Source of the DNA: Shigella phage vB_SsoS-ISF002
DNA: 50,564 nt
Strand: one strand, 5' to 3'
Sequence record: MF093736
Shown here: positions 4,476-45,217 of the stretch, in pieces
How positions within the stretch are numbered: the stretch's first letter is position 1
How the letters are laid out: the number at the start of each line of letters is the position of its first letter
Program-made: the position numbers and the translations under genes
Notes under the pieces: model-generated
The model's input: only the letters and a program-made list of their open reading frames with translations
Database searches by the model: none
Told to the model about the DNA's origin: nothing

Positions 4476-4494
4476 TTTTAGCAATTAGTGCTGT
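4476..4494 (-). promoter_or_regulatory. conserved intergenic box (variant)
   Basis: Plus strand reads ttttagcaattagtgctgt; it contains the stop codon of the gene above it. Confidence 0.45.
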
Positions 4495-5498: not shown

Positions 5499-5517
5499 TT
5501 TTAACAAAAAGTGCTAT
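5499..5517 (-). promoter_or_regulatory. conserved intergenic box
   Basis: Plus strand ttttaacaaaaagtgctat; contains the VRR-NUC stop (TAG); about 55 nt upstream of the Dam start. Confidence 0.5.
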
Positions 5518-8005: not shown

Positions 8006-8026
8006 GTTTTTAGCAAAAAGTGCTAT
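8006..8026 (-). promoter_or_regulatory. conserved intergenic box upstream of the helicase
   Basis: Plus strand tttttagcaaaaagtgctat, about 60 nt upstream of the helicase ATG. Confidence 0.5.
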
Positions 8027-8038
8027 AGGAGAATTAAG

Positions 8039-8491
8039 ATGAGTATTCAACGTATCGCAGAGTCAACTGGTGAAATCGATAAACGTCACATCAATGGTAA
8101 CAACGGAACACGACGCGGTAAAGATAAAAAGCCTCGACAGCGCTGCGGCTTCTATATTCATAAAGAAGAAACACGCGCCGGATTGCGAGCGCGACTTGAT
8201 GCGCTTATCGAATATTATGGTGGCCCTGCGGCCTGCGCAAAAGCTCTAAAGGTTAGCAATCAGACGGTGCAAGGCTGGAAAGAACGCAACATGATTTCGT
8301 GGCAAGGTGCTGAAGCTGCGCATCGTGCTTACCGACGACAGGGGTGTAAAGGGTTTCGTGCCGCATGGTTGCGATTCGACCTGAAGTTTGACGGTAACGG
8401 CAAGTGCCTTGAGAAGCGATGCAAGAACAAGAAATTTATGCGCGTCGTGAAGAAGGAAGATATCGGGACGACCAATAGCATTTTTAGTTAA
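8039..8491 (+). CDS. helix-turn-helix DNA-binding protein (candidate transcription regulator)
   Basis: Cro/CI-type HTH-like segment AKALKVSNQTVQGWKE; basic N-terminus; RBS taggaga. Confidence 0.5.
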   Translation: MSIQRIAESTGEIDKRHINGNNGTRRGKDKKPRQRCGFYIHKEETRAGLRARLDALIEYYGGPAACAKALKVSNQTVQGWKERNMISWQGAEAAHRAYRRQGCKGFRAAWLRFDLKFDGNGKCLEKRCKNKKFMRVVKKEDIGTTNSIFS

Positions 8492-11403: not shown

Positions 11404-11429
11404 AAAATCCCCGCATTGCGGGGATTTTT
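11404..11429. terminator. bidirectional rho-independent terminator between the tail fibre and ssb genes
   Basis: Perfect 11-bp stem aaaatccccgc / gcggggatttt with a 3-nt loop. Confidence 0.7.
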
Positions 11430-14203: not shown

Positions 14204-14434
14204 ATGAAAAAGTTAATCACCATTATTGCTGCGGCATTCATCCTGACTGGTTGTGCTCAGAATCTTAAAAATGGCGACTGCGTTACTTACGCGTACGGCT
14301 CTTGCATGATGCGATTCGTTGATGGTAAAAAGGTTCCGGCTGGCGAAATTGACATGCGATTCAAAGGTCTGTCATCCGACGACGATCAGGGCAACTTTAG
14401 CGGCAAGGTATCAATCAAAACTAAAGAGTGGTAA
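14204..14434 (+). CDS. small outer-membrane lipoprotein, candidate superinfection-exclusion protein (Cor/Llp-like)
   Basis: Signal peptide with lipobox MKKLITIIAAAFILTGC; 76 aa; immediately upstream of a candidate receptor-binding protein. Confidence 0.5.
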   Translation: MKKLITIIAAAFILTGCAQNLKNGDCVTYAYGSCMMRFVDGKKVPAGEIDMRFKGLSSDDDQGNFSGKVSIKTKEW

Positions 14435-14436
14435 TT

Positions 14437-15393
14437 ATGGGGCAAGGAATATACATAAATCTAAATGACGGTCGCCCGGCAATGGAGATAACTTCAGGGC
14501 TTCGCGCCCCGTCATGGTGCGGACCTATACAGGCTGACGGGGTTGATTCATCTGGATCGGTTTTTGATTTTGGTTTGCAAATGAGTCCAGGGTCTACTGC
14601 TTTTTGCCTTCCATCTCAGGCTATCTACATAGACGATATGGATTACATCCCGGAGGTGTATTATTTGACCAGTTTTCAGAAGGTCAATGATTCAACCGGA
14701 CGAATAACGGTAGGTAATTTTAACGGGCATGGTGGAAGGAGGATGAGATTTTATGGAAACTGCTACGAAATCCTCCCCGCTCAGGCTGGAAATCAGGGGA
14801 TACTTGTTAACGATTCAACGAACTTCGCAGCGATACCTAATAACGCAAGATTGATGAGCGCTGCATTTGTTGGCGGGATTCAGGTTAACGGTCAGGCTCA
14901 GTTGCCAGTACAGGGCGTTCCTTTCGGTATGTGGGATAATCCAAACGTAACACTTGAATCTGACGGCAATACAATATGGTGCAGGGATGCAAACTATAAC
15001 GGGATTGATGACGTTGGCGCTAGCGTATACGTGCAACTCGTAATATTTAATAACACTCCACCACCTCCTGGGCCAGGAATAACTATGAGTAACCCTGCTG
15101 GTCAGATCGTTTTCTCAAGCGTTAGACGCCCCTTCGTTCTTGGCGGGACTATGGCGATAAATGATGGTTGGCAGTGGTGCGGTGGATTTTTCCCAATACT
15201 GAGAACAGGTACGATATGCAGAGTTACAGGTGGATATAATAACATTCGATACAAGGGCGTTTGCATGAGCGGCGGTAACGTGAGAAGCGCACCCGGAACA
15301 AGGGTAGGTAACTATTCTACTCAGAGCGGCGCTCAATTTCCCTTCAATATAAACATTTCAATGCCAATTCCTTTCACTCCAAACATGTATTAA
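14437..15393 (+). CDS. candidate receptor-binding tail protein (function inferred from context only)
   Basis: 318-aa Gly/Asn-rich protein with a PPPPGPG linker; co-oriented with the lipoprotein and convergent on gene J across a shared terminator. Confidence 0.35.
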   Translation: MGQGIYINLNDGRPAMEITSGLRAPSWCGPIQADGVDSSGSVFDFGLQMSPGSTAFCLPSQAIYIDDMDYIPEVYYLTSFQKVNDSTGRITVGNFNGHGGRRMRFYGNCYEILPAQAGNQGILVNDSTNFAAIPNNARLMSAAFVGGIQVNGQAQLPVQGVPFGMWDNPNVTLESDGNTIWCRDANYNGIDDVGASVYVQLVIFNNTPPPPGPGITMSNPAGQIVFSSVRRPFVLGGTMAINDGWQWCGGFFPILRTGTICRVTGGYNNIRYKGVCMSGGNVRSAPGTRVGNYSTQSGAQFPFNINISMPIPFTPNMY

Positions 15394-15420
15394 AAAAAAG
15401 GGGCCAATCAGCCCCTTTCT
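15392..15420. terminator. bidirectional terminator between the receptor-binding candidate and J
   Basis: Stem aaaggggc / gccccttt, loop caatca, with flanking A and T runs. Confidence 0.6.
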
Positions 15421-15421
15421 G

Positions 15422-18400
15422 TTACCAGACACCAACAACCACTCGGCCCCCGTTAGGTAGGTTAACCGTGATCCCGTTATTGTTTATCTGAACCGTGTTA
15501 TTTGTTCCGTTAAATGCAAACGATCCGTTATCCGCATACAGAGCACCCCTTACGGTAGCATTCATGAAGTACGCAGCACCATTCTTGTTAATATGCCACC
15601 CTTGATTTCCATCCCAATTGTTAGACTGAATAGCGTTACCAATCATTGCGTTAGTAATAAATCCATCCTTGATGATCGCGCTACTTAGAATAACCTGACC
15701 ATTCTCAACAACGAATGGATACTGAGTCTGACCGTTCATGCCAGTCATGATTGCAAATCGAGATGCCTCAAAAAGAATCTGAGCCTTAACAGCCGCACCA
15801 GAACCAATCAGAGACATAGCCATACCTGCGCTGTATTCCTGACCATTATACTTAAGGCCCAGCTTGACGCCGTACATTGCACCAGTCGAATCGGCGTTAC
15901 TCCACGAGTCAAGTTTTTGAGAAAGTGCTGCCTCGTTATTCCCAAGTCGCGCGCTTAACGTTAAGTCAGCTTGCGTTCTCGCCTCAGTCTCGTTCGCGAT
16001 GGCTTCACGGATATCGGTCAAACTTGCCTGAATATCATCACCAATCTCTGCCTTGAGTTGGTCAATCTCACGAGATAGCGCCCCTGTCTCAGTTGCGATA
16101 ACTTCACGCAATTCACTATTGCTTGCGCTAATCTGATCGCCAAAACTTGCTTTCAATTGCTCGATCGCCGTCACTCGTGCCTGCGTCTCATCAGCAATAA
16201 GTTTCAGTGATTTCGTGTACTCAGCCTTTCGTTTTCCGTTCTCCTTCTTCATATAGATCGCGTCTTTGTCATTAGCTAACGCGTTCTCAATTGACGCTTC
16301 CGCGTTCGCTGCGTTCTGCGCCGCGTTGCCTGTTGCGTTATCAACAAGCCACTTGTAGCCAGGCGAGTTTTCTATATCGACAGAAATCTCTCCGATGATA
16401 TCGTCAACGTTTGTTGATGCCATACCTCTGACAAAATCAGTCCACTGAGACACATTACCGATCCTGTCAACCGTCCTTACCCGATACCACACAATATTCC
16501 CGCCCGGCATCGGTGAATGATAATACTCATGCTGCGGATACGGGATCAGAGAGAGTAAACTCGCATTGTCAACCGTTCCATCCGGTGACTGTTGCAACTC
16601 TGTATAGGCCGTATCTCCAGAACCATCAGAGAACCCCCATTTTGTACGGATACCAAAAACAACATCATCAGTAGCCGTAAGGTTAATCGGTCTGCCCGGC
16701 TCACCTTGTTTGCCAGTCAGCGTCGCAGCTACGATATTTGACCATCCTGAAGTCGTACCGGAACCAGCTACGGAGCGAACGCGAACCTGATAGTTGCCAG
16801 CGTAAATACCCTCAACGTAAACCTCTTTGTTTGCTGTCTGCGGAACGTTTTGCCAGTTGCCGTTATCCTTTCTCCACTGTACGTCATAGAAAACTGCGTA
16901 CGGCACTTTATCCCAGCTAACAATCATCGTTTCTACGCTCATCCCCTGGACGATTCTCGACTCTGAGGACACTTGCACGTTTTCCGGTCTAGGGATCTGA
17001 TCTGGTTCAACGATGCTCGTCGGTCGGTCGTCGATGTTAACTCCGTAATCAATCTCGTCGTACTTGTTAGGATCGTACTCCACCGCCGTGATTTTGTAGG
17101 TAAATTCCTCGTCATCATCGCCCTTATCGATTTTTGTCACGACGTACTGTTGTAGCGCAATGTCGGTGCGGTCGATAGCGAATACCGTGTTAGGCTTCAC
17201 AGGAAAGCCAAAGCCAATGTTAACCTCTATAGTCTTACCATCCGCACTAACACTTGAGATTGTGCGCTTCACGGGCTTGCCGTCGGGCTTATTTACGATA
17301 ATAAAGTCACCTGCGCGCGCATCCACACGGAACGGCAAGAAAATCTGGCTTCCAGACACTTCAAGCAAGCGCCCTGATAGGTTCATAGTCAAGTTGCTTG
17401 ACCAGAAGTTGTCGGCTATTGCCACAACATCACCTATTGTCGGGATCATACCTTCAAGCCCGGTAGCGAAGTTTACCGTAGTGCTGCGGAGGTTAGTTTT
17501 CAGAATCCATCTCCCGCGTCGGTTTGCCTCACTTCGACGTGTGCAGCCGATCGCTGTAATGCTCGTTACGTTGTTCCCGAACCGTAGAGTAGCCTCACGA
17601 TCGAATACTGGCTCAACGTCCTGCTGATACATGTTTTGCTCGTCATCAAACATCACATTACACGTCGTGTACATACTCTTTTCGCTTGCGAACGTGTAGG
17701 AGAAGTCACCATTAACAACGTTGTCGTTAGTGAAGATGTACGCAGGTTCACGCGGCCTGTCGATGATTACCGAAATGCTTTCGCCATTCCAAAAGCTCAT
17801 ACCTCGAAAGATTGAGCAAATATCTCGAATAACCTTGTAAGCGTCAGTCTGAGACTGGATTATCACGTCGCAAAGGTATCGAGGCTCCGTCCCTCCCTTC
17901 CCATCAGGAACCATCTGATCGCAATATTGCGCGGCCTCGTAGAGCGCCCATTTATCGACGGAGATCCCAAGCTCCTTCTGATCCAGTCCGTAGCGCTGAT
18001 TAATCATCAGGTCGTATAGAACCCATGCCGGGTTGTTAGTCCAAGCCTTCTTGAAAGTCCCATCCCAATTTCCGTTGTAGGTTCGAGACTCAGGGTCGTA
18101 ATTAGATGGAACGTTAATAATCTTCCAGCGCTTACGAATTGAGATCGTAGGCAGCTGGTTTGGGAACATTTTCGAATCAAACTCGACAAAAAGAAGACCA
18201 GTCAGAGGATAACGGAATTTGGCATCAATCACCTCGGCATAGCTTTTCACCTGAATTGCATCAACGACATTCGAGTCACTTGAGTCAGGAGTCTTTCGAA
18301 CAACTCTGAATATTACCTGGTTGTTGAAGTTCGGCAGGTTTACGCGACGGCTTCGATCATAACCCGACATTGTTTTGCCTTCGATTACATCAGTAAGAAC

Positions 18401-18871: not shown

Positions 18872-18918
18872 GATGTTTACCTTTTTGTGCTATTTATCGG
18901 TGGACTCATTATACAGGC

Positions 18919-18944
18919 GAAAAAAAACCCGCGCAAGGCGGGTT
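18919..18944 (-). terminator. terminator-like hairpin between I and J
   Basis: aaaaaaacccgcgcaaggcgggtt; 7-bp stem; U-run on the minus-sense transcript. Confidence 0.45.
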
Positions 18945-18948
18945 AATT

Positions 18949-19548
18949 TTAACTCATATCCTCGGCATAAGAACCTGCTGAGAAAGTTGCGCCACCTCCG
19001 GCGCGATATCCATACGGGACCGGGAGAGGGTATCCCGCCGCCGTCGTATTGACAGCACCGCCGAACGCGTACGAAGGTTTATTCTTGCTTGATTGAACTT
19101 CAAAGTTTGCGCCACCCGGCTGCGGTGAAATCATCTGCATCACGCCGCCCAGCACCATAGCGCCGCCCATCATAAACAGAGACGAGGACATTGTGCCCAT
19201 TAAAGCCAGAGACGCGCCGCCAGTATAGAATGCTGCAACCATTATTGCCGCGCCCAATACAACCTGGAATAGACCTCCTGTCTTAGAGCCAGTAGGGATC
19301 GGTACGATTCTTATCTCTTTCGCGCACTTGAATTTTTCCTCTTCATGGTGTCCAACGTTAACGCCATCCACAAATATTGCAAACTTGCTACGAGATCCTA
19401 TCTCGCTTTGCATGTATTCTTTGAATCCATCCACCTGACTGGATAGCGCCCGGATAGCTTCCGGGTAAGAGTCAACGGCGAATCTGTGAAAGACGCCGAA
19501 GCGCCTTCCAAGTGAACCTGATAATTTGATTACTTTTACATCATTCAT
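18949..19548 (-). CDS. tail assembly protein (lambda I-like)
   Basis: Position after K; Gly/Ala/Met-rich hydrophobic C-terminal half typical of I proteins. Confidence 0.65.
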   Translation of the reverse strand: MNDVKVIKLSGSLGRRFGVFHRFAVDSYPEAIRALSSQVDGFKEYMQSEIGSRSKFAIFVDGVNVGHHEEEKFKCAKEIRIVPIPTGSKTGGLFQVVLGAAIMVAAFYTGGASLALMGTMSSSLFMMGGAMVLGGVMQMISPQPGGANFEVQSSKNKPSYAFGGAVNTTAAGYPLPVPYGYRAGGGATFSAGSYAEDMS

Positions 19549-20279
19549 AATTTAAGATCCTTATGGCGAACAATTAAAACAGTATGATCCTGATACCAGC
19601 CGGAATAGATATCACGTCGCGAAAGTTTGCCAAAGGCGTGATGCAAGATCTGATTATCACCCAGGTAAATGCCTGCGTGGTTCCATACCGGAACATTTTG
19701 CCCTATCTGCATGATTACCATATCCCCGGATGATGGGTTATTCTGATCTGGAATCTCAACGAATCCATCTTGCTTGTAATAATCCTGATAGAGATTAATT
19801 CCGTACTCCGGTTTCCACCATTCAAAATTCAATCGGCGATCGCGTAACTCTACGCCGTGCTCTTTGTGCCACGCCATAACAAGACCGTAACAGTCGAATG
19901 ATCCTAATGACCACGGACGACCAATCAGAGGTAATTTCTCTGGCTTCACAAATCGCATATCCCCTTCAGGCACGCTAACAATGATCCAGGTAACTTCCAT
20001 CTCGTTGCACATGCACGTATCGTGAGCGCTTGGTAGAGTTGTAGCCCCGTCTCCTGTATGACTATGAACAATTGCGATCGTAGTTGATTCCGCATCGTCC
20101 TCAATGCAAGCGTATTGTACAGCATCCATCATGAAATGATTCTCGGGATCACGATGCACATTATCAATGCGATGGTATTTTTGCACTCGGCCCTTTTGGG
20201 TGACTACCCCGCAGCATTCGCGTGGGTATTCTTCTTGAGCGTGAGTCATAATTTCAAGTTTAATTTTTGCACTAATCAT
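19545..20279 (-). CDS. tail protein with MPN/JAMM and NlpC/P60-like domains (lambda K-like)
   Basis: JAMM-like HSHTGDGATTLPSAHD and a C-terminal Cys/His-containing domain; start at the internal ATG next to the L stop. Confidence 0.7.
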   Translation of the reverse strand: MISAKIKLEIMTHAQEEYPRECCGVVTQKGRVQKYHRIDNVHRDPENHFMMDAVQYACIEDDAESTTIAIVHSHTGDGATTLPSAHDTCMCNEMEVTWIIVSVPEGDMRFVKPEKLPLIGRPWSLGSFDCYGLVMAWHKEHGVELRDRRLNFEWWKPEYGINLYQDYYKQDGFVEIPDQNNPSSGDMVIMQIGQNVPVWNHAGIYLGDNQILHHAFGKLSRRDIYSGWYQDHTVLIVRHKDLKL

Positions 20280-21058
20280 TGATTTTTCCTCTGTAGTGAA
20301 GCGACAGCGCAACCACCAAAATCCAATTCATTGTTTGCACCGAATCTCAGGCGGCAGGCCGTTACCGTACCCGGGCAAAAGTCCAGTGAAGGATCATCTA
20401 CCGGATTATTGTCTTTATCAAAGTAACCGTTTTGCCCGTTATATCCGCAGCCCTTCCCGGTTTTATACCATCCACGCTGCGCCCAATAGCATACGCTTTG
20501 CGTGAGTCGAGACGGAATCATGATGCCGTCCATATCGTAAGGTGATGTGAGATCGAACCGCGCAACGCTTTTATCAACATAGTTCGGACGCTCGATATAG
20601 TATACCAGTTTGCGGTAAGCTCCATCAGCGATTGAGCCATCGGAGTTAATAAGCTCACGCTGAGTTATCCAGATAGTCACCTTAGCTTGCATTAGTCCGT
20701 TATATGCACGAATCATCGCAGATACGCGACTATCAATGTTTGCCACCGTTAATTGTGGTTTTGTTGCCTTGCCTGAACTGTCAAATGAGATCCCGGATAT
20801 ACCGAAAGGTCGCGCCCCGTATTTCTCGCCACGGAATGTAATTTCCTTCGGCGGTAGCGTTCCAGTTTGCTGGGCCTGCATGATTTCTTCTGGAGTGTAC
20901 TGGATATTCTCACCGTGGAATCGGTACACCTGAGCGCCGAACTTACTACCATCAACTTCGATGAGAGTGATTATCTCTCCCGGATATAGTGATTGTAGGC
21001 AGTTGTGAAACAGGCTTCTTCCGCTTTCTTCATCATAAAGTTTTTTGTTTTCGCTCAT
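20276..21058 (-). CDS. minor tail protein (lambda L-like)
   Basis: C-terminal cysteine cluster (CYWAQRGW ... CGYNGQNGY ... CPGTVTACR); start at ATG with RBS agaggaaaaa. Confidence 0.7.
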   Translation of the reverse strand: MSENKKLYDEESGRSLFHNCLQSLYPGEIITLIEVDGSKFGAQVYRFHGENIQYTPEEIMQAQQTGTLPPKEITFRGEKYGARPFGISGISFDSSGKATKPQLTVANIDSRVSAMIRAYNGLMQAKVTIWITQRELINSDGSIADGAYRKLVYYIERPNYVDKSVARFDLTSPYDMDGIMIPSRLTQSVCYWAQRGWYKTGKGCGYNGQNGYFDKDNNPVDDPSLDFCPGTVTACRLRFGANNELDFGGCAVASLQRKNQ

Positions 21059-21099
21059 TGATTTTTCCTCTTGTTTACCTGCAACCATTCTACAGCTAC

Positions 21100-21128
21100 A
21101 AAAAAACCCGCGCAAGGCGGGCTTTTGT
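21100..21128. terminator. hairpin between L and M, sharing a 22-nt core with the hairpin at 18919
   Basis: aaaaaaacccgcgcaaggcgggcttttgtt. Confidence 0.4.
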
Positions 21129-21493: not shown

Positions 21494-24367
21494 TTAGCCT
21501 CCTGTTTTTTCCTGAATGTAATTGTAAACCTCACCGCCCTGCGAACAAGACTCTCGAATCATTTTTTTGAACATCATTTCTACGCCCTGAGAAATTCCTC
21601 TCGGATCTGAACCGTTGTCAACTTTAACCTCCATACCCCTAACATCAACGACCGTCCCGCCTGCTGATTGGTTTACTGCCTTCGGCGCTGATTTAGATGC
21701 GTTAAATCCAGAGGTTGCAACACTACCCGCAGCGGCGGCAAGCGAGGTAACAGCGACACCCGAAGATAAAGACCTAAAACCAGAGGCGGCAGGCGTAGGA
21801 GTTGCCTGTGATGCCGCAGAAGCACCAGGAGACACCCCTCCAGCAAAACTCCACGTCTTACCGCCCATCATGCCTGAGATCGTATTGAATATTACCATCT
21901 GAGCAATCATCTTGATAATCATGCTAATGATGTTTTTCGCAAAGTCCTCAAAGTTTGCCTTACCTGTAGTGAGGAATTGGGTCATCATATCACTCATTCC
22001 ATTAAGTGAACTTGACGCGATATCATATACGTTACCATACATATCCATTGCAGAATCGCCGTAATCTGCAAATGCGCTTTCAGCACCAGCTAACCAGTCA
22101 GCGCGTTTGGCATCTTCCGCAGCGTAGTAATCATTTTGCGCCTTAATCATGTTCTGGAGTTTTTCGTCTCCCTCACTACCTCCAGAGTTGATGTAATCAG
22201 TGGTTATTTTAGCCAGTTCCGCTTGTCGTTCCATCTCGCGCGTGCTAAGACCGCGTGACGCGTTAAGCTGTTCTGTCGCCGCCGTCATCTCATTGACAAA
22301 CTTCAGAGATTTATCGGTAAGATCATTCAACTGTTGTTGCTTAACAATCTGATCGCCAATCTCGGCCTTCTGTTTTGCAAGCTCAATAACTCTCTCCTGA
22401 CTTGCCAGCAACGCTTTCTCTTCCGCAGACAACTGACGCTTAGAACTGGCTTCACGAAGAACAGCAATCGTTGCCTCGGTCGTAAACAGCGCTTTTCTCT
22501 GTGCGGAAAGTTTTTGCCCGATCTCCTTGTGCTCCTGCAATACCTTAAGTTGAGCCTTGAGTGAAATTAACTCCTTGTCGAATTGCTCTGTCGGTGAGCG
22601 TACAATTTTCGACTGCTTATTTCGTTCTCGGTTTCGCTTCTCGATCTCTTCTGCTTCTTTCCTTATTGCTTCCTTAGTTTCCTCGCTGTACTGCTTTTCA
22701 AGAGTGCGACGCTGCCTCATTGCTTCAATGTATCCCATCTCGCCTTTTTCTACACGAGCGTTAATAGCGTCAAGCTCTGAAGCCAACTGGTCGTAGTTGT
22801 CGCGAGAACTTTTTACGATGTTCTCCTGCTCCTTCAGTACATCAGCGCCGAAATCACTCATTCCAGGCAGTGACTGAGTTGCCTTTATGGCTGAGGCGAT
22901 AAAGTTTGAGATGTACTCATCACCCTTCGCTAGAATCATTTTGACCTGAATCACTGTACCCTGAACAACGTCGATAATCAGGTTTAGCGCCCCGAGTGTA
23001 TGATCACCAACCCATCCCCACGCGTCCGAAGCCCATTGTTTAATATCGCTCCACATCTTTTCCAGAGGAGTAGCGTTATCCGCGATCGACTTCATTCGCT
23101 TTTCCATTACGTCTGCGAATAGTTTGGTAGCCTCTGATACAGCCTCAGTTTCTCCTTTCGTCCGGCTTAATGTATCGATATAGGTAAGCTGCCCTTTTTC
23201 AAGGAAATTATATTGCTCGTTTAACTTCTTCAGACCTTTTACCGGATCGCTTGCGATTTTGTCGAACTCAGAAATAATTTGACTTGCTGACTTTCCTGTT
23301 GACGCTGACCACTCTGCGGTAGCCTTAGTGATGTTCTGGATCTGCTCGCGGGTGTACTTACCAGAACTTGCCAACTCCGTTACAATCTCGCGAATACTCC
23401 CAATGGTTGAGTTGCTTGTCTGAGCCACCTTTTTAGCAACAGAATCAAGCTCTTCAGCCGTGACTCCTGCATAACCTCCAGTCTCAACAAGAGCCTTCTG
23501 CATATCAGTTATTGACTTGTAAGAGTCATAACCAGCTTTCGCAAGAAGACCTAAAGAGCCGACAAGAACACCAACACCAACTGTGACCGGATTAATATAG
23601 CTGAGCAATACCTTAAATGTATTCCCGATCCCGCCGAACGAGTCCTTGATTTGACCGCCTTGCTGGATGGCAACCATCCAAACTGGCATACCTGACGCAA
23701 GAGATGTAACGACGTCGGTAATCTGCGCGGGAAGCATTCGCATTGCCTGCCTATATTGCCCAGCGCTAATACCTGCGGCATTCATAGCTCGACCCTGCTC
23801 TTTCAGTTTTGCGATCAGTGGCGCTGCTTCATTTGATAGTCCAAGCTGAGCCGCTTTCAGTTCCATTAACTCTGCGTGAGTTTTGCCAATAGCGTTAACC
23901 TGACTGTTCAGGGAATCCATGAACGCTTTGTTTTTCGCTGCTGCCTGATCTTTTGCTTTCGCTTCCTGCAATGCTGCCTGACCCTCTTCAGTAAGCATGG
24001 CTCGGCTGCGAGCAAGTTTTGCATTTTGCATGTCCAGCATTTCACCCAAACGGAAAAATGTTTCATCTGGAACAACGCCCTTTTGCCAGAGTTTATCAAG
24101 CTGCTGAGATGCAATCTTCAGCCTTTCCATTTTTGATACTGTAGGATCGATTGCCTTTTCTACAGCCTCGTACTCTTTGCGCTGGCGCTTAAGTTGCTCA
24201 GCGTGTTCTTTAGCCTTCTGTTTTGCAACCTCGGCCTCATTGATTAAAGACCCCATAGAGTCAGCGGCTTGGTCGTTAGCTTTTGAAAACTCTTTCAATG
24301 ACTTGACGGCGCGCTGCACTGTCGACACATCAACGTCAAGCGATAGACCTGCTACCTTATCAACCAT
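21494..24367 (-). CDS. tail tape measure protein
   Basis: 957 aa, long coiled-coil regions, hydrophobic Gly-rich C-terminal segment ([23 protein letters not shown]). Confidence 0.85.
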
Positions 24368-24406
24368 ACAACCCCCTTATATACAAAAAAACCGCCAGAC
24401 GGCGGC

Positions 24407-24733
24407 TTAGTTATTCTGCTTAGCAATCATTTCAAGCGCTTTCGCTTCCATGATCCTAACGTCCTGCAATGCCAGTTCTTCATCTTCTATTTTATAGATT
24501 TTAAACAACATAGGCAAAACATTATAGTCAAGACCATAAGCGCCAGCGCCTGAACTTCTCCACTGAGTGAGCATTGATGTAAAAACATTCCAAGCCTTCA
24601 CCATTTCAGCGTCGCCAATTATCGTTTCAGGTTCCTCGTCTTCATAGTCTGAAAGACTTAAACCAACCGATCGCAATTGTTCCTCTGTTGGCGGCTTCTG
24701 ATATAACAGATAGACCGCCTTTTTTAGTTTTTT
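24407..24733 (-). CDS. T segment of the tail assembly chaperone, reached by -1 frameshift from G (fusion product 25041 down to 24407)
   Basis: Frame is open upstream of the annotated TTG start and overlaps the end of G in the -1 frame. Confidence 0.55.
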   Translation of the reverse strand, partial: KKLKKAVYLLYQKPPTEEQLRSVGLSLSDYEDEEPETIIGDAEMVKAWNVFTSMLTQWRSSGAGAYGLDYNVLPMLFKIYKIEDEELALQDVRIMEAKALEMIAKQNN

Positions 24734-25041
24734 GCGCGGTGTCCGGCAAGAGCCTTGATGTAAGTCGCTGTCAGGTTGTACGCTGCTGAAGGATAATACT
24801 GAACCAGTTTTCGCGCATTTTCTTCGTTAAATTCTTCTTCAAGGTTCCATCCTGACGCGATCTTGGTAATGAACTCGCTGTCGTTCATTTCTCCCTGGTT
24901 GGCATACATATCCTGAACTTCTTTACTGGAAAGGTGGCGTACAGTGAAAATGATCGTTGCATCTTCACCGTTAGGCATGGTGAAGGTAACTGGAAGTTTG
25001 AAGTCTGGAAGTTGACCAAGAATAAAATTAAATTTAGCCAT
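24724..25041 (-). CDS. tail assembly chaperone (lambda G-like)
   Basis: 105-aa acidic protein between the major tail protein and the tape measure gene. Confidence 0.7.
   Translation of the reverse strand: MAKFNFILGQLPDFKLPVTFTMPNGEDATIIFTVRHLSSKEVQDMYANQGEMNDSEFITKIASGWNLEEEFNEENARKLVQYYPSAAYNLTATYIKALAGHRAKN
24727..24733 (-). other. slippery heptamer A_AAA_AAC for programmed -1 ribosomal frameshifting
   Basis: Minus-strand reading gca aaa aac taa; the heptamer sits immediately before the G stop and the -1 frame continues open. Confidence 0.6.
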
Positions 25042-25062
25042 GATATTTCTCCTGATTGGTTA

Positions 25063-25082
25063 ATGGCACTTTTTGTTAAAAG
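25063..25082 (+). promoter_or_regulatory. conserved box in the tail-module leader (inverted relative to the gene)
   Basis: atggcactttttgttaaaag. Confidence 0.4.
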
Positions 25083-25124
25083 AGAATAGTGCAAACTTGA
25101 TACGATGATTTTACAGAAATGAAT

Positions 25125-25144
25125 AAGGGGGCGCAAGCCCCCTT
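25125..25144 (-). terminator. hairpin after the major tail protein gene
   Basis: 8-bp stem aagggggc / gccccctt with loop gcaa. Confidence 0.5.
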
Positions 25145-27445: not shown

Positions 27446-27469
27446 AAAAAAAGGCGCATTAAGCGCCTT
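27446..27469 (-). terminator. terminator-like hairpin
   Basis: Stem aaggcgc / gcgcctt, loop attaa, preceded by an A-run. Confidence 0.45.
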
Positions 27470-27780: not shown

Positions 27781-27807
27781 AAAAAAGGGACCAACTAAGT
27801 TAGTCCC
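27781..27807 (-). terminator. hairpin after the major capsid gene
   Basis: aaaaaagggaccaactaagttagtccc. Confidence 0.45.
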
Positions 27808-27814
27808 TATAATA

Positions 27815-28774
27815 TTACACGCCAGTGATTAAGACAATAGTCATCGGACGATAAATTGTAAGGCCAGTACACTTGGAGGTGCAAGGCACTTTAAAGTGAA
27901 GGTCTTTCGGCTGCGCTGGCAGCATGTTAAATGCTTCCGGGATCTCGATGGACATATTCATCGGATTTTTTTCGTACACCAGTACGCCTTTAGTACCCGC
28001 ACCGTCGATATCTTCAAGCTCTGCGATAGAGTCGATTTCGATACCAGCATTCTGAGACTTGAAATAGTCCAGGTAAGACATGGTAGTTTCAGGCATACGG
28101 ATCGCCAGAACCTTACGCATGGACGGCGGGATCAGAATGTTGGTTGCACGATGCTGACCGCGAGTAATCGTCTCGATGGTTTCAATCGCCTGAGTCAATT
28201 CCGCTTCAGCCGTTTCCGGCTTCGGAGTTGAGACATTCATCCACTTACCGGAGGTAATTTTGGTGATGTTCGGATGGTTGAACACGGACACGATCTTGTG
28301 CGGCGCGGAACCTTTGAACACCAGACGGTTAACCAGTTGGTCATGCGCTAACTGACACGCGCTTGCCTTGCGGGTTGACAGCGGTCGACCAGTTGCCTGA
28401 CCTGCTTTGATTTCGTCGATTGAAATCAGGTACGCGTTACCCAAGCGGAACACCTTACCGAACTCAGAAGTACCAAGCGCATCAACCAGAGGCAGGTCAT
28501 CTGTATAGTCAGCGATAATCTGCGCAGTACCAACCTTATCAAAGGTCATATACTCAAACGTCTTGTCGGTCGGAGATAGATCGGTAGTAACCGGGAATAC
28601 TCGAAGTGCGGAGCCTACCGGGTAGTCTTCTTCATAGGACTGGCTTTTGATGCGGTGTAGTTCCTGAGCGGTCCAGATACCCATCGTTGCGGCTGCATCC
28701 TGTTTTACGCCAGCCTGGATCAGATACATTTCAACATTGCTCTTATCTGCTTCATCAAATTTTTTAGTAGTCAT
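27815..28774 (-). CDS. major capsid protein
   Basis: 319 aa, strong RBS aaggaga, flanked by hairpins, located after the scaffold and decoration-like genes. Confidence 0.7.
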   Translation of the reverse strand: MTTKKFDEADKSNVEMYLIQAGVKQDAAATMGIWTAQELHRIKSQSYEEDYPVGSALRVFPVTTDLSPTDKTFEYMTFDKVGTAQIIADYTDDLPLVDALGTSEFGKVFRLGNAYLISIDEIKAGQATGRPLSTRKASACQLAHDQLVNRLVFKGSAPHKIVSVFNHPNITKITSGKWMNVSTPKPETAEAELTQAIETIETITRGQHRATNILIPPSMRKVLAIRMPETTMSYLDYFKSQNAGIEIDSIAELEDIDGAGTKGVLVYEKNPMNMSIEIPEAFNMLPAQPKDLHFKVPCTSKCTGLTIYRPMTIVLITGV

Positions 28775-28829
28775 GATTACTTCTCCTTAGTTAATAAAAA
28801 AAGCCGTGATTATGTTCACGGCTTCAATA

Positions 28830-28848
28830 ATAGCACTTTTTGTTAAAG
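28830..28848 (+). promoter_or_regulatory. conserved box upstream of the major capsid gene (inverted relative to the gene)
   Basis: atagcactttttgttaaag. Confidence 0.4.
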
Positions 28849-28866
28849 CGTCAAAGTATTTTTGTG

Positions 28867-29634: not shown

Positions 29635-29693
29635 AGTATTTTCTCCATAAAAAAAGGACTACCCAAAAGGATAGTCCCCATATTAAACACTAA

Positions 29694-33331: not shown

Positions 33332-33387
33332 ACTTTCCCTCCAATAAAAAAGGCCGTCAATTGACAGCCTTGATTATATCTCATTTA

Positions 33388-35577: not shown

Positions 35578-35595
35578 AACCCGCCGTAGCGGGTT
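35578..35595 (-). terminator. hairpin upstream of the terminase operon
   Basis: aaacccgccgtagcgggtt preceded by an A-run. Confidence 0.45.
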
Positions 35596-37364: not shown

Positions 37365-37384
37365 GTTTTAGCAATTAGTGCTAT
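37365..37384 (-). promoter_or_regulatory. conserved intergenic box
   Basis: Plus strand gttttagcaattagtgctat. Confidence 0.5.
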
Positions 37385-38660: not shown

Positions 38661-38679
38661 TTTTAGCAATTCGTGCTAT
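38661..38679 (-). promoter_or_regulatory. conserved intergenic box
   Basis: Plus strand ttttagcaattcgtgctat. Confidence 0.5.
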
Positions 38680-39180: not shown

Positions 39181-39199
39181 TTTTAGCAATTCGTGCTAT
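39181..39199 (-). promoter_or_regulatory. conserved intergenic box
   Basis: Plus strand ttttagcaattcgtgctat; contains the upstream gene's TAA. Confidence 0.5.
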
Positions 39200-40535: not shown

Positions 40536-40554
40536 GTTTAGCAATTCGTGCTAT
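40536..40554 (-). promoter_or_regulatory. conserved intergenic box
   Basis: Plus strand gtttagcaattcgtgctat; contains the TAG stop of a small ORF. Confidence 0.5.
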
Positions 40555-41821: not shown

Positions 41822-41841
41822 GTTTTAACAAAAAGTGCTAT
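41822..41841 (-). promoter_or_regulatory. conserved intergenic box
   Basis: Plus strand gttttaacaaaaagtgctat. Confidence 0.5.
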
Positions 41842-42843: not shown

Positions 42844-42862
42844 TTTTAACAATTCGTGCTAT
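42844..42862 (-). promoter_or_regulatory. conserved intergenic box
   Basis: Plus strand ttttaacaattcgtgctat. Confidence 0.5.
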
Positions 42863-43582: not shown

Positions 43583-43602
43583 TTTTAACAAAAAGTGCTA
43601 TT
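43583..43602 (-). promoter_or_regulatory. conserved intergenic box
   Basis: Plus strand ttttaacaaaaagtgctat; contains the TAG stop of the upstream gene. Confidence 0.5.
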
Positions 43603-44605: not shown

Positions 44606-45217
44606 GGCTTGCAGGTCGATTTTAAGTGTGGTTAATCGTGTTAATCGTGTTAATCGCTTTCCCCATATAAATATGAGCCGATAAAACTACTGTATATATA
44701 AACATGAATACAATAATCAGAGCATCCAACGATTAACATAGTAGACACGCTATACAACCATATTACAGATAATAGTATCTATATATATAAATAAAAAAAA
44801 TACTTATATATTATATATATACATATAGATATATGTATATTATAAGGCGTAATTTGGTGTAATTTTGTCTACTATTGAGATTCAGGCAAATTGTAGACAA
44901 CTGTTAACACACGGTCAAGTGTAACCGTAATCGATAGCACGTTTTGCTAAAAATGGAGATAACCACCAGGCGAACCGGGTAACACCAGATCCTCCCTCTC
45001 ACAATCATTGCATTCTAAGCAACAAATAAACCAACTGTTGCACACCGTGCAATAATCACGTTTCATCATTCGTAATCAATAACAATCAAGGTTATTACAC
45101 CTATTCCAGTATTGATGGAATAATGAGCAATTATTGGAATAGCATTTTTTGCTAACGACTCGGTCGGGTAGGTCGGGTATAGTCCGGCCCATAAACCAAT
45201 CAGAAGAGGAAGCAACA
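44606..45217. promoter_or_regulatory. AT-rich divergent control region between the two arms (candidate origin, packaging or early-promoter hub)
   Basis: 612 bp non-coding; tatatata tracts; 3 tandem GTTAATCGT 9-mers at 44631..44657; boxes at 44934 and 45138; CAACTGTT elements at 44897 and 45034. Confidence 0.5.
44631..44657. repeat. three tandem 9-bp repeats (gttaatcgt, gttaatcgt, gttaatcgc)
   Basis: Direct reading. Confidence 0.9.

Follow-up and report, generated by a model that had tools for sequence, protein, structure and literature searches.

Predicted intrinsic terminators at conserved gene boundaries in the late region of a T1-like Shigella phage, three of them overlapped by predicted promoters

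Hairpin elements between the late genes

The window analyzed here is the complete 50,564-nt genome of Shigella phage vB_SsoS-ISF002 (sequence record MF093736), a Tunavirus that, across the 22 kb of late region used for comparison, is 97.6% identical to Shigella phage ISF001. Early genes occupy a block from 44.6 to 36 kb and late genes one from 36 to 15.4 kb, both read in the same direction; intergenic DNA, taken as the sum of the gaps, accounts for only ∼4% of the late region. Over the whole window, a strict stem scan detected 31 elements consisting of a hairpin and a T-run, compared with 7.3 ± 2.6 (maximum 15) in 60 dinucleotide shuffles, and a looser terminator scan of the interval from 17 to 36.5 kb returned 33 elements versus 17.3 ± 4.4. 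The looser scanner failed to report the minus-strand element at 21100, having extended its stem into the A/T runs and lost the tail, whereas the strict scan recovers it. A permissive RNAfold-based terminator scan yielded 169 candidates and was too noisy; the strict stem scan with shuffle controls was used instead. Rfam 15 gave no match at the gathering score in the whole window, nor did a tRNA scan give a match. The two decoration proteins (gp37 and gp36) cross-hit each other in tblastn.

Eleven elements were located in the late region, all of them intergenic and oriented with the genes, on the minus strand. They are single hairpins with stems of 7–11 bp that include at least five G-C pairs and with loops of 3–6 nt. 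In ten of the eleven, U6–U8 follows directly after the stem; the element between the major tail gene and G has a weak U-tract, UUAUUCAUUU, in this phage and its clade, and U6–7 in other clades. Free-energy calculation for each hairpin, a check proposed in the initial annotation, gave values between −11.5 and −16.6 kcal/mol; relative to shuffles, the z-scores ranged from −2.6 to −6.5. Besides a core repeated at two tail-gene boundaries, that annotation had listed eight further elements, all of which are present, each reading on the minus strand as a hairpin and then a U-run (weak at major tail–G). The eleventh, at the end of J (15395–15420; T1 annotation 28568–28594), is bidirectional and lies between convergent genes, and another terminator is found ahead of the small terminase gene (35578–35595; T1 annotation 8322–8344). 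The GC stem-loop, the U-tract and the sense-strand intergenic site downstream of a gene that define intrinsic terminators are thus found together and, judged by their full anatomy, the elements are predicted sense-strand Rho-independent terminators.

Most of these sites can be recognized in the record of the type phage T1 (AY216660.1), which belongs to the same genus and has the same gene boundaries and sequences. Nine of the eleven are annotated there as 'terminator, rho-independent', as predictions like those presented here, and the capsid promoter is annotated as well; the TerL–portal and major tail–G elements and the −10 hexamers described below for M–L, I–J and major tail–G carry no annotation. 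A total of 18–21 terminators has been predicted in T1-like phages (PMC4070988), and TLS and other Drexlerviridae, whose genomes are mostly unidirectional, likewise have numerous predicted intrinsic terminators, every one of them intergenic (PMC11447400, PMC4070988). Since predicted terminators are already annotated in T1, their rediscovery contributes little. The comparison makes a modest addition: apparent selection at fixed boundaries, three terminators that seem to be fused to a conserved promoter, and a predicted need for read-through at the rest. The coordinates provide a ready list of sites for mapping T1-like late transcription, for which the searchable literature on Drexlerviridae and Tunavirus yielded no transcript ends, termination efficiencies, promoter activities or protein ratios, and the elements are also on offer as compact natural parts for E. 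coli, either terminators or terminator-promoters.

Conservation at fixed gene boundaries

The same gene boundaries were compared in 80 + 27 related loci (∼100), in which minor tail protein L is as low as 63% identical. A hairpin plus T-run was present at M–L in 79/80 loci, at I–J in 77/78 and at T–TMP in 73/74, and the major tail–G element was in the same position in 75/75. Elements also occurred between the decoration and Ig-decoration genes (35/35), at TerL–portal (20/24) and at orf–TerS (15/16). Control gaps were nearly empty (TerS–TerL, 2/24; protease–decoration, 1/60), although they can be as long as 40–90 nt. The TerS–TerL gap carries a hairpin that lacks a U-run.

Stem sequences turn over between clades with compensatory pair changes, as seen for example after the major capsid gene. 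The hairpins used for covariation and strand asymmetry were chosen for sense-strand folding, so that the following counts are biased toward structure: at capsid–orf46, 90.8% of cells were paired compared with 79% in shuffles (slid controls were lower), the covariation score was 0.45 versus 0.26, with 0/500 shuffles as high, T–TMP behaved similarly, and, out of 128 distinct hairpins, the sense RNA was the more stable strand in 79 and the antisense RNA in 33. For the I–J hairpins, MAFFT/RNAalifold returned no consensus structure because hairpin lengths differ between clades; positional presence and the better-aligned capsid–orf46 and T–TMP sets took its place. We conclude from the sequence comparison that selection keeps the putative terminators at fixed gene boundaries throughout the family.

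Conservation of the T-run also bears on what kind of element is selected. The hairpins might be non-terminating RNA elements, serving as 3′-exonuclease barriers once the RNA is processed, RNase III-type sites, or translational insulators or enhancers ahead of the ribosome-binding site; the U-run adjoins the Shine-Dalgarno sequence (UUUUUAUUGGAG), where it might also act as an enhancer bound by S1, and a T-run is dispensed with both in the TerS–TerL hairpin and, in some clades, behind the capsid promoter. However, at least six T residues directly 3′ of the stem are kept at the conserved sites across clades, and a stabilizer or insulator needs none. This makes a purely non-terminating role extremely improbable, and the suggestion in the initial annotation that the hairpins are RNA stabilizers, taken alone, leaves the conserved T-runs unexplained. 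RNase III substrates are double-stranded stems of ∼20 bp or longer, often with an internal loop. The stems found here, at 7–11 bp, are far shorter, and a processing site of the T7 type was rejected on this basis.

Predicted terminators overlapped by promoter motifs

At three boundaries the predicted terminator is combined with a −10 hexamer; we refer to these elements as class A. On the minus strand, they comprise the I–J hairpin AACCCGCCUUGCGCGGGUU with U8 (18926–18944, ΔG = −11.5 kcal/mol; T1 annotation 24972–24994), the M–L hairpin AAAAGCCCGCCUUGCGCGGGUUUUU with its U-run (21102–21126, −14.2 kcal/mol; T1 annotation 22793–22816) and the major tail–G hairpin AAGGGGGCUUGCGCCCCCUU (25125–25144, −15.7 kcal/mol; not annotated in T1). 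In each case TTGCGC is located in the loop and 3′ arm (positions 18931–18936, 21110–21115 and 25131–25136, respectively), and a hexamer follows after a 17-nt spacer: TATAAT at I–J (18908–18913), TAGAAT at M–L (21087–21092) and TAAAAT at major tail–G (25108–25113). The combined motif TTGCGC-N14-CTG-TAnAAT occurs three times, each time at a terminator, compared with 0.01 expected occurrences. The −35-like TTGCGC matches TTGACA at only 3/6 positions (the TTG), and class A falls below the promoter-scan threshold and goes uncalled, but the 17-nt spacing fits.

The hexamers are conserved in relatives. At I–J, TATAAT or TACAAT was found in 42 of 43 distinct sequences, with 16–18 nt from loop to hexamer in all that could be measured, and in an unbiased MAFFT alignment of the gaps of 11 divergent relatives TA.AAT is invariant while its flanks vary. 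With the spacer counted from the loop TT[G/T] to a hexamer matching TATAAT at 5/6 or more positions, M–L has such a hexamer in 36/39 distinct sequences; among the 38 with a hexamer, 34 show a spacer of 16–18 nt. At major tail–G, the corresponding match of at least 5/6 was seen in 33 of 42 distinct sequences, TAATAT in seven more, and the spacer is 16–17 nt in 40 of the 41 having a hexamer. Just scattered weak hexamers were detected at the other four boundaries. Based on this pattern, class A is a predicted terminator overlapped by a conserved predicted sigma-70-type promoter, in which the hairpin, through its loop and 3′ arm, would supply the −35-like TTGCGC and the T-run most of the 17-nt spacer. 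Transcripts arriving from upstream would stop, and a new transcript would begin ∼30–70 nt ahead of the next gene.

The 22-mer AAAAAAACCCGCGCAAGGCGGG, which the initial annotation had described as an identical core at two tail-gene boundaries, belongs to this class. It is present on the plus strand exactly twice (18921–18942 and 21100–21121, a few bases from where it was first placed), compared with 0.00 expected in 100 dinucleotide shuffles, once in the 77-nt I–J gap between tail genes and once in the 79-nt M–L gap. Identity between the copies ends with the hairpin and T-run, the flanks are not shared, and in the strict scan the remaining nine late-region hairpins are unrelated in sequence. 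Both copies are among the sites annotated in T1, where the 22-mer is unchanged at M–L and I–J; in TLS the two hairpins are alike but not identical, GCCGCC(A)TTGTGCGGC compared with CCCGCCGTTGCGCGGG. The same 22-mer was also found in unrelated viral contigs, each time as a hairpin plus T-run with different flanks. A mobile REP- or MITE-like palindrome was discarded, there being only two identical genome copies with identity limited to the hairpin and T-run. Being a self-complementary stem with a T-run, the 22-mer has low effective complexity, and the copies are separated by only 1–3 substitutions in sister genera; two similarly constrained elements account for the match better than chance identity does. 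The 22-nt identity is thus explained as the overlap of two class A elements held to a GC stem, a TTG loop and a T-run spacer, the copies being alike because the terminator-promoter constraint is common to both. Within the Tunavirus clade, these two elements would then have become identical.

The major capsid gene shows a mirror layout. Its promoter (TTGACG, 16 nt, TG-c-TATTAT; 28827–28854, minus strand; T1 promoter annotation 15062–15089) has 10/12 matches and an extended −10, and it is conserved in all clades. A hairpin with U7, located in the gap that separates the capsid gene from the Ig-like decoration gene (28800–28825; T1 annotation 15095–15121), begins 2 nt past the −10, and in some clades this hairpin lacks a T-run. 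The predicted start falls within the 5′ arm of this putative terminator. With this addition, conserved predicted sigma-70-type promoters immediately follow the terminators at major tail–G, M–L and I–J, and a further one immediately precedes the terminator ahead of the capsid gene. The initial annotation had placed the elements within one operon, a premise that the predicted promoters at four of the terminators do not support.

It is conceivable, if rather doubtful, that class A elements are termination-reinitiation modules and that the capsid hairpin stops only transcripts initiated upstream, letting those started at the capsid promoter pass. At class A, RNA polymerase would free its RNA within the T-run. 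This stretch doubles as the spacer of the following promoter, to which the enzyme would be passed directly; such recycling on DNA after termination would generate discrete mRNAs with 3′ hairpins while transcriptional flux is kept. Both layouts are conserved across Drexlerviridae, and the module CCCGCCTTGCGCGGG-T8-N6-TAyAAT is also found in unrelated viral contigs.

Class B gaps and transcription of the late block

A second set of terminators, class B, follows five genes on the minus strand: the large terminase gene TerL (33350–33371; the sequence is present in T1 but unannotated there), the capsid decoration gene (29654–29679; T1 annotation 14237–14269), the major capsid gene (27786–27808; T1 annotation 16107–16137), the orf46 homologue (27451–27469; T1 annotation 16445–16470) and the tape-measure chaperone gene G/GT (24389–24408, ΔG = −12.6 kcal/mol; T1 annotation 19508–19527). 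The gaps measure 56 nt from TerL to the portal gene, 59 nt after the decoration gene, 49 nt after the capsid gene, 42 nt from orf46 to the head-tail connector gene and 39 nt from G/GT to the tape measure gene, and they are filled by the hairpin, the U-run and then at once the Shine-Dalgarno sequence. No conserved −10 was found at any fixed position in these 39–59-nt gaps, and no promoter was detectable ahead of the tape measure gene. Class B gaps therefore offer neither room for a promoter nor a conserved sign of one, and the downstream genes appear to be expressed only via read-through. As a matter of logic, the essential genes behind class B (tape measure, portal, connectors and major tail) would require it.

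T1-like phages encode no RNA polymerase and use that of the host (PMC11447400). Taking the two classes together, the late-region elements are probably intrinsic terminators for host RNA polymerase that cut the 21-kb block into nested units; termination itself, how efficient it is, the activity of the promoters and any influence on protein ratios are inferred from the sequence. Class B would let part of the polymerases pass, stepping down the mRNA of the downstream genes, and would leave a protective 3′ hairpin on the upstream mRNA. The graded attenuation suggested in the initial annotation is therefore plausible for class B, with its short gaps and no promoter sign, but not for class A, which has predicted promoters of its own. 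A set of nested units matches the T1 picture given in PMC11447400, which cites Roberts et al. 2004 for a late region made of 'transcriptons', modules flanked by terminators and having their own RpoD promoters. The TLS authors, using a stricter promoter search, did not confirm transcriptons (PMC11447400).

If the terminators were full stops, each unit would have its own promoter, read-through would not be meaningful, and protein ratios would be set by promoter strength and translation. The conserved promoters at four terminators, the strong appearance of the hairpins and U-tracts, and the T1 model of modules with their own RpoD promoters (PMC11447400) are consistent with such an arrangement. 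It is nevertheless unlikely, as the class B gaps of 39–59 nt have no conserved −10, which would leave the tape measure, portal and connector-to-major-tail blocks promoterless unless a promoter lies inside an upstream coding region. The probable reading, nested units with partial read-through at class B, has a difficulty of its own in the major tail gene, whose product is needed in high copy and which has two class B terminators upstream and no promoter detected. To supply the major tail protein, either the class B terminators are quite leaky, or a promoter went undetected, or antitermination operates.

Antitermination is employed by several phages, for example through lambda Q, the HK022 put RNA, Xp10 p7 and P23-45 gp39. 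Here, real terminators might be overridden late by an unrecognized phage mechanism, with early silencing of the late genes as their main role. The early and late blocks are co-directional, time-dependent read-through is known in other phages, and eleven efficient terminators in an essential 21-kb block would reduce its output to near zero. However, among 10 early proteins no PHROGs antiterminator family was represented, the only candidates being a C2-like regulator and an 'RNA-binding protein', and a terminator or two where the early and late blocks meet would suffice for silencing. The sites right behind the genes for the most abundant proteins (decoration, capsid and major tail) suggest instead a function in late transcription, and we regard an override of this kind as very unlikely. 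The comparison with lambda is instructive, as its late operon, a single co-directional block, has the same tail order (V, G/T, H, M, L, K, I, J). Lambda transcribes it from a single late promoter with the processive antiterminator Q and has no series of internal terminator-promoter modules, whereas no Q-like protein was found here in the PHROGs search of the 10 early proteins.

Nested units with partial read-through have counterparts elsewhere. In T7, the T-phi terminator is located after capsid gene 10. T7 and, in part, LUZ7 rely on phage RNA polymerases and their read-through has been measured, whereas in the present phage we infer read-through by the host enzyme. Measurements in LUZ7 showed partial read-through at one terminator after another, and in T7 expression is balanced by inefficient terminators (PMC9163698). 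The features that the late region would share with these phages are a terminator directly behind the major capsid gene and serial partial terminators among the structural genes, giving rise to nested, 3′ co-terminal transcripts.

Hairpins and U-runs of the late region

The 50,564-bp window is a complete Tunavirus genome (Drexlerviridae), with numbering about 20 nt ahead of that of Shigella phage vB_SflS-ISF001. In megablast searches, ISF001 covered 100% of positions 15400-37400 with 97.6% identity, and about 50 further T1-like phages covered at least 80%. The minus strand carries all the structural genes, from TerS, the small terminase (35519), to the J-like tail tip protein (15422), and the tail genes follow a lambda-like order (major tail, G/T, tape measure, M, L, K, I, J).

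The 22-mer AAAAAAACCCGCGCAAGGCGGG occurs exactly twice (0.00 expected), at 18921-18942 in the 77-nt I-to-J gap and at 21100-21121 in the 79-nt M-to-L gap. Each copy reads CCCGCCUUGCGCGGG on the minus strand, followed by U7-8. The initial annotation had reported this repeat together with eight other elements, and all were found as minus-strand hairpins followed by a U-run. An eleventh element is located 3' of J. Each of the eleven contains one hairpin, and the free-energy calculation that had been proposed as a check gave -11.5 to -16.6 kcal/mol, with z-scores of -2.6 to -6.5 relative to dinucleotide shuffles. All eleven are intergenic and oriented with the genes, in a late region whose intergenic share is ∼4% (sum of listed gaps). 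A strict scan of the whole window returned 31 hairpin plus U-run elements, compared with 7.3 ± 2.6 (maximum 15) in 60 shuffles. We conclude that the original observation holds, well beyond what chance would give. Two further late-region hairpins have no U-run: one after the G stop codon and one between TerS and the large terminase TerL, whose folding is not significant (z = -1.7). Separately, three hairpins, each bordered by an A-run and a T-run, separate convergent genes (1022-1050, 11404-11428 and 15395-15420) and look like bidirectional terminators.

The terminators themselves are already known for T1, as predictions. The current GenBank record (AY216660.1) lists a 'terminator, rho-independent' at nine orthologous sites. 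Two of them precede a gene (TerS and capsid), and seven follow one (decoration, capsid, orf46, tape-measure chaperone, M at 22793-22816, I at 24972-24994, and J). T1 carries the same 22-mer at both equivalent sites. Likewise, 21 putative intergenic terminators were described for TLS (PMC11447400) and 18–21 for four T1-like phages (PMC4070988). The terminators in the record and in these papers are in silico calls, and our literature search found no transcript-end mapping for the T1-like phage family.

Conservation at orthologous gene boundaries

Two sets of loci, 80 containing a relative of minor tail protein L (identity 63–100%) and 27 centred on TerL, were searched with tblastn to place the orthologous boundaries. 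A compact hairpin followed by a T-run was present at M–L in 79/80 loci, at I–J in 77/78, between the chaperone and tape measure genes in 73/74, and at major tail–G in 75/75 (58 detected automatically, the remaining 17 having the same hairpin clipped by the extraction window). The same was true of decoration–Ig-decoration (35/35), TerL–portal (20/24), the orf–TerS boundary (15/16), and both capsid–orf46 and orf46–connector in nearly all loci bearing orf46. Among the loci compared, boundaries with overlapping genes had no such element, and two control gaps of comparable length almost always lacked it (TerS–TerL, 2/24; protease–decoration, 1/60). In the most distant clade (L055-L080), an extra gap of ∼110 nt, not present in the clade of the window, separates the tail terminator and major tail genes and holds a hairpin and T-run (-8.8 to -11.9 kcal/mol) just 5' of the latter.

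Stem sequences vary by clade with pairing retained, as illustrated by the arms after the capsid gene (AGGGGCTAAC/GTTAGTCCCT, GGGAGCCTC/GAGGTTCCC, GGGGAATCC/GGGTTCCCC and AAGCCTCTC/GAGAGGCTT). In a MAFFT alignment of this set, 90.8% of cells pair compared with 79.0% in shuffles, and the covariation score is 0.45 versus 0.26, with 0/500 shuffles equalling it and every slid register scoring lower; the chaperone–tape measure set behaves similarly. For 128 distinct hairpins, the sense RNA is more stable than the antisense in 79 and less stable in 33. Since hairpins were chosen for sense-strand folding, these three measures are biased, and the presence/absence counts with control gaps are the cleaner evidence. 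The initial annotation had also considered that the elements might be RNA stabilisers. The T-run is, however, invariant at every conserved hairpin, which argues for termination over a purely stabilising hairpin.

Predicted terminator–promoter composites and proposed read-through

The pattern TTGCGC-N14-CTG-TAnAAT occurs three times in the window (0.01 expected), always at a terminator, with -10 hexamers TATAAT at I–J (18908-18913), TAGAAT at M–L (21087-21092) and TAAAAT at major tail–G (25108-25113). Because the pattern was drawn from these three sites, conservation provides the independent test. At all three boundaries, most distinct sequences in all clades have a hexamer matching TATAAT in at least five of six positions (TATAAT, TACAAT, TAAAAT, TAGAAT, TATGAT or CATAAT), 16–18 nt, mostly 17, from the loop TT(G/T). 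The same procedure gave scattered weak hexamers without fixed spacing at chaperone–tape measure, capsid–orf46, orf46–connector and Ig-decoration–capsid. An unbiased alignment of the I–J gap in 11 divergent relatives has three invariant blocks, namely the loop TT, four T-run Ts and T-A-x-A-A-T, flanked by variable columns. Given the conserved hexamer and spacing, we consider the three elements to be predicted terminator–promoter composites, in which the loop and 3' arm would supply a -35-like hexamer and the T-run would lie within the spacer. A loop of TTGCG or TTGTG is kept in all clades at these three hairpins only, as expected if it doubles as the -35-like hexamer.

The M–L and I–J hairpins are alike throughout the family, except in the most distant clade, where their sequences are unrelated. 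In one genus, they differ by a single flipped base pair (GCCGCCTTGCGCGGC versus CCCGCCTTGCGCGGG); the TLS clade has GCCGCC(A)TTGTGCGGC at M–L and CCCGCCGTTGCGCGGG at I–J, and a third 22-mer site is present in its genomes. In Tunavirus, identity spans the hairpin and T-run and goes no further. The terminator and promoter constraints common to both elements would account for their likeness. The 22-mer has low effective complexity and was found exactly in 69 stretches of IMG/VR contigs (L110-L177), always as a hairpin plus T-run; judged by their flanks and 18–98-kb contigs, an appreciable minority of the stretches seem not to be related to T1-like phages. In a few of the latter (L145, L171 and L163), TACAAT or TATAA follows the 22-mer with the spacing seen in T1. 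Insertions of 0.5–0.7 kb were seen in L048 at M–L, with a cysteine-rich open reading frame, and in L038 and L040 at I–J and L–K; terminator–promoter gaps seem to be preferred places for extra genes. A repeat-like motif, A(A/C)AGCACAAAAGGTTAAAA, overlaps the ribosome-binding site of J in the window (18876-18893, minus strand) and in the I–J gaps of L017-L044; it is kept in most clades, with invariant A-C-A and G..AAA columns in the I–J alignment.

Every clade has a strong predicted promoter 5' of the capsid gene (TTGACG/TTGCAC, 16–17 nt, TG-c-TATCAT/TATTAT), and the T1 record lists a promoter there (15062-15089). In the T1 clade, a hairpin (28800-28825) begins 2 nt past the -10, so the predicted start falls within its 5' arm. 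RNA from this promoter would form only a truncated 5-bp hairpin, and RNA from upstream the full 10-bp terminator. In several other clades this hairpin has no T-run, and in the most distant clade the order is reversed, terminator then promoter.

We propose that late transcripts would stop at these terminators and that transcription would resume at the three composites and the capsid promoter. The 39–59-nt gaps after TerL, the decoration gene, the capsid gene, orf46 and G/GT are occupied by hairpin, U-run and ribosome-binding site (e.g. UUUUUAUUGGAG-N8-AUG), so the genes downstream should be expressible solely via read-through; the blocks concerned would be portal to decoration, connectors to major tail, and tape measure to M. 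These terminators must therefore be partial. The genes for decoration, capsid and major tail, the three most abundant proteins of the virion, are each followed by a terminator, as is the chaperone gene; this placement would fit a step-down of mRNA such as that measured in LUZ7 and T7 (PMC9163698). A scan of 10 early proteins recognised no antiterminator family; most early genes have no assigned function. Thus, the interpretation in the initial annotation was right in part: graded attenuation may reasonably be inferred for roughly half of the elements, those in the short gaps, but not for the rest, which include the composites with their predicted promoters. Nor is the late region the single operon supposed, given the predicted promoters at the composites and the capsid gene.

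Repeats near predicted promoters and a probable G/GT frameshift site

The sequence ATAGCAC-N3-TTGnTAAAA, reported as a 'direct repeat' in TLS (PMC11447400), has ∼30 copies in the window (4.5 expected). Nearly all lie in early intergenic regions and are oriented with local transcription, for example at 725-742, 2489-2506, 4477-4494, 5500-5517, 8009-8026, 37367-37384, 38662-38679, 39182-39199, 40537-40554, 41824-41841, 42845-42862 and 43584-43601 (minus strand), and at 44934, 45906, 46370, 46992, 48109, 48627 and 49127 (plus strand). The repeat TTG is separated by a fixed distance of ∼22 nt from a downstream TATAGT-like extended -10, after which come conserved CATCGAnAACGA, a Shine-Dalgarno sequence and ATG. 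Between repeat and start, directly upstream of the -10 or flanking it, is a 6–8-bp inverted repeat not mentioned in the TLS paper (PMC11447400), with arms that vary per copy (e.g. GGGATAAC/GTTATCCC, ATGTGGTT/AACCACAT and AAGGGCAT/ATGCCCTT). In reverse complement, the ATAGCAC repeat reads TTTAACAAAAAGTGCTAT and makes up both the spacer and the extended -10 of the conserved capsid promoter (minus strand, 28827-28854), and a second copy of this type lies in the major tail-to-G gap (25059-25081, minus strand). The 18-mer of the ATAGCAC repeat is thus present in both orientations relative to transcription, which would fit a candidate protein-binding site common to early and late promoters.

Finally, the tail assembly chaperone G/GT seems to contain a -1 frameshift site at 24690-24735 (minus strand). 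There, the G stop codon (24726-24724) directly follows a canonical slippery heptamer, A_AAA_AAC (24733-24727), and the -1 frame is open into the T part. The hairpin at 24719-24690, which a 7-nt spacer separates from the heptamer, has no U-run (-15.5 kcal/mol, z = -4.3) and is likely a frameshift stimulator; the T1 record annotates a joined G/GT frameshift product.
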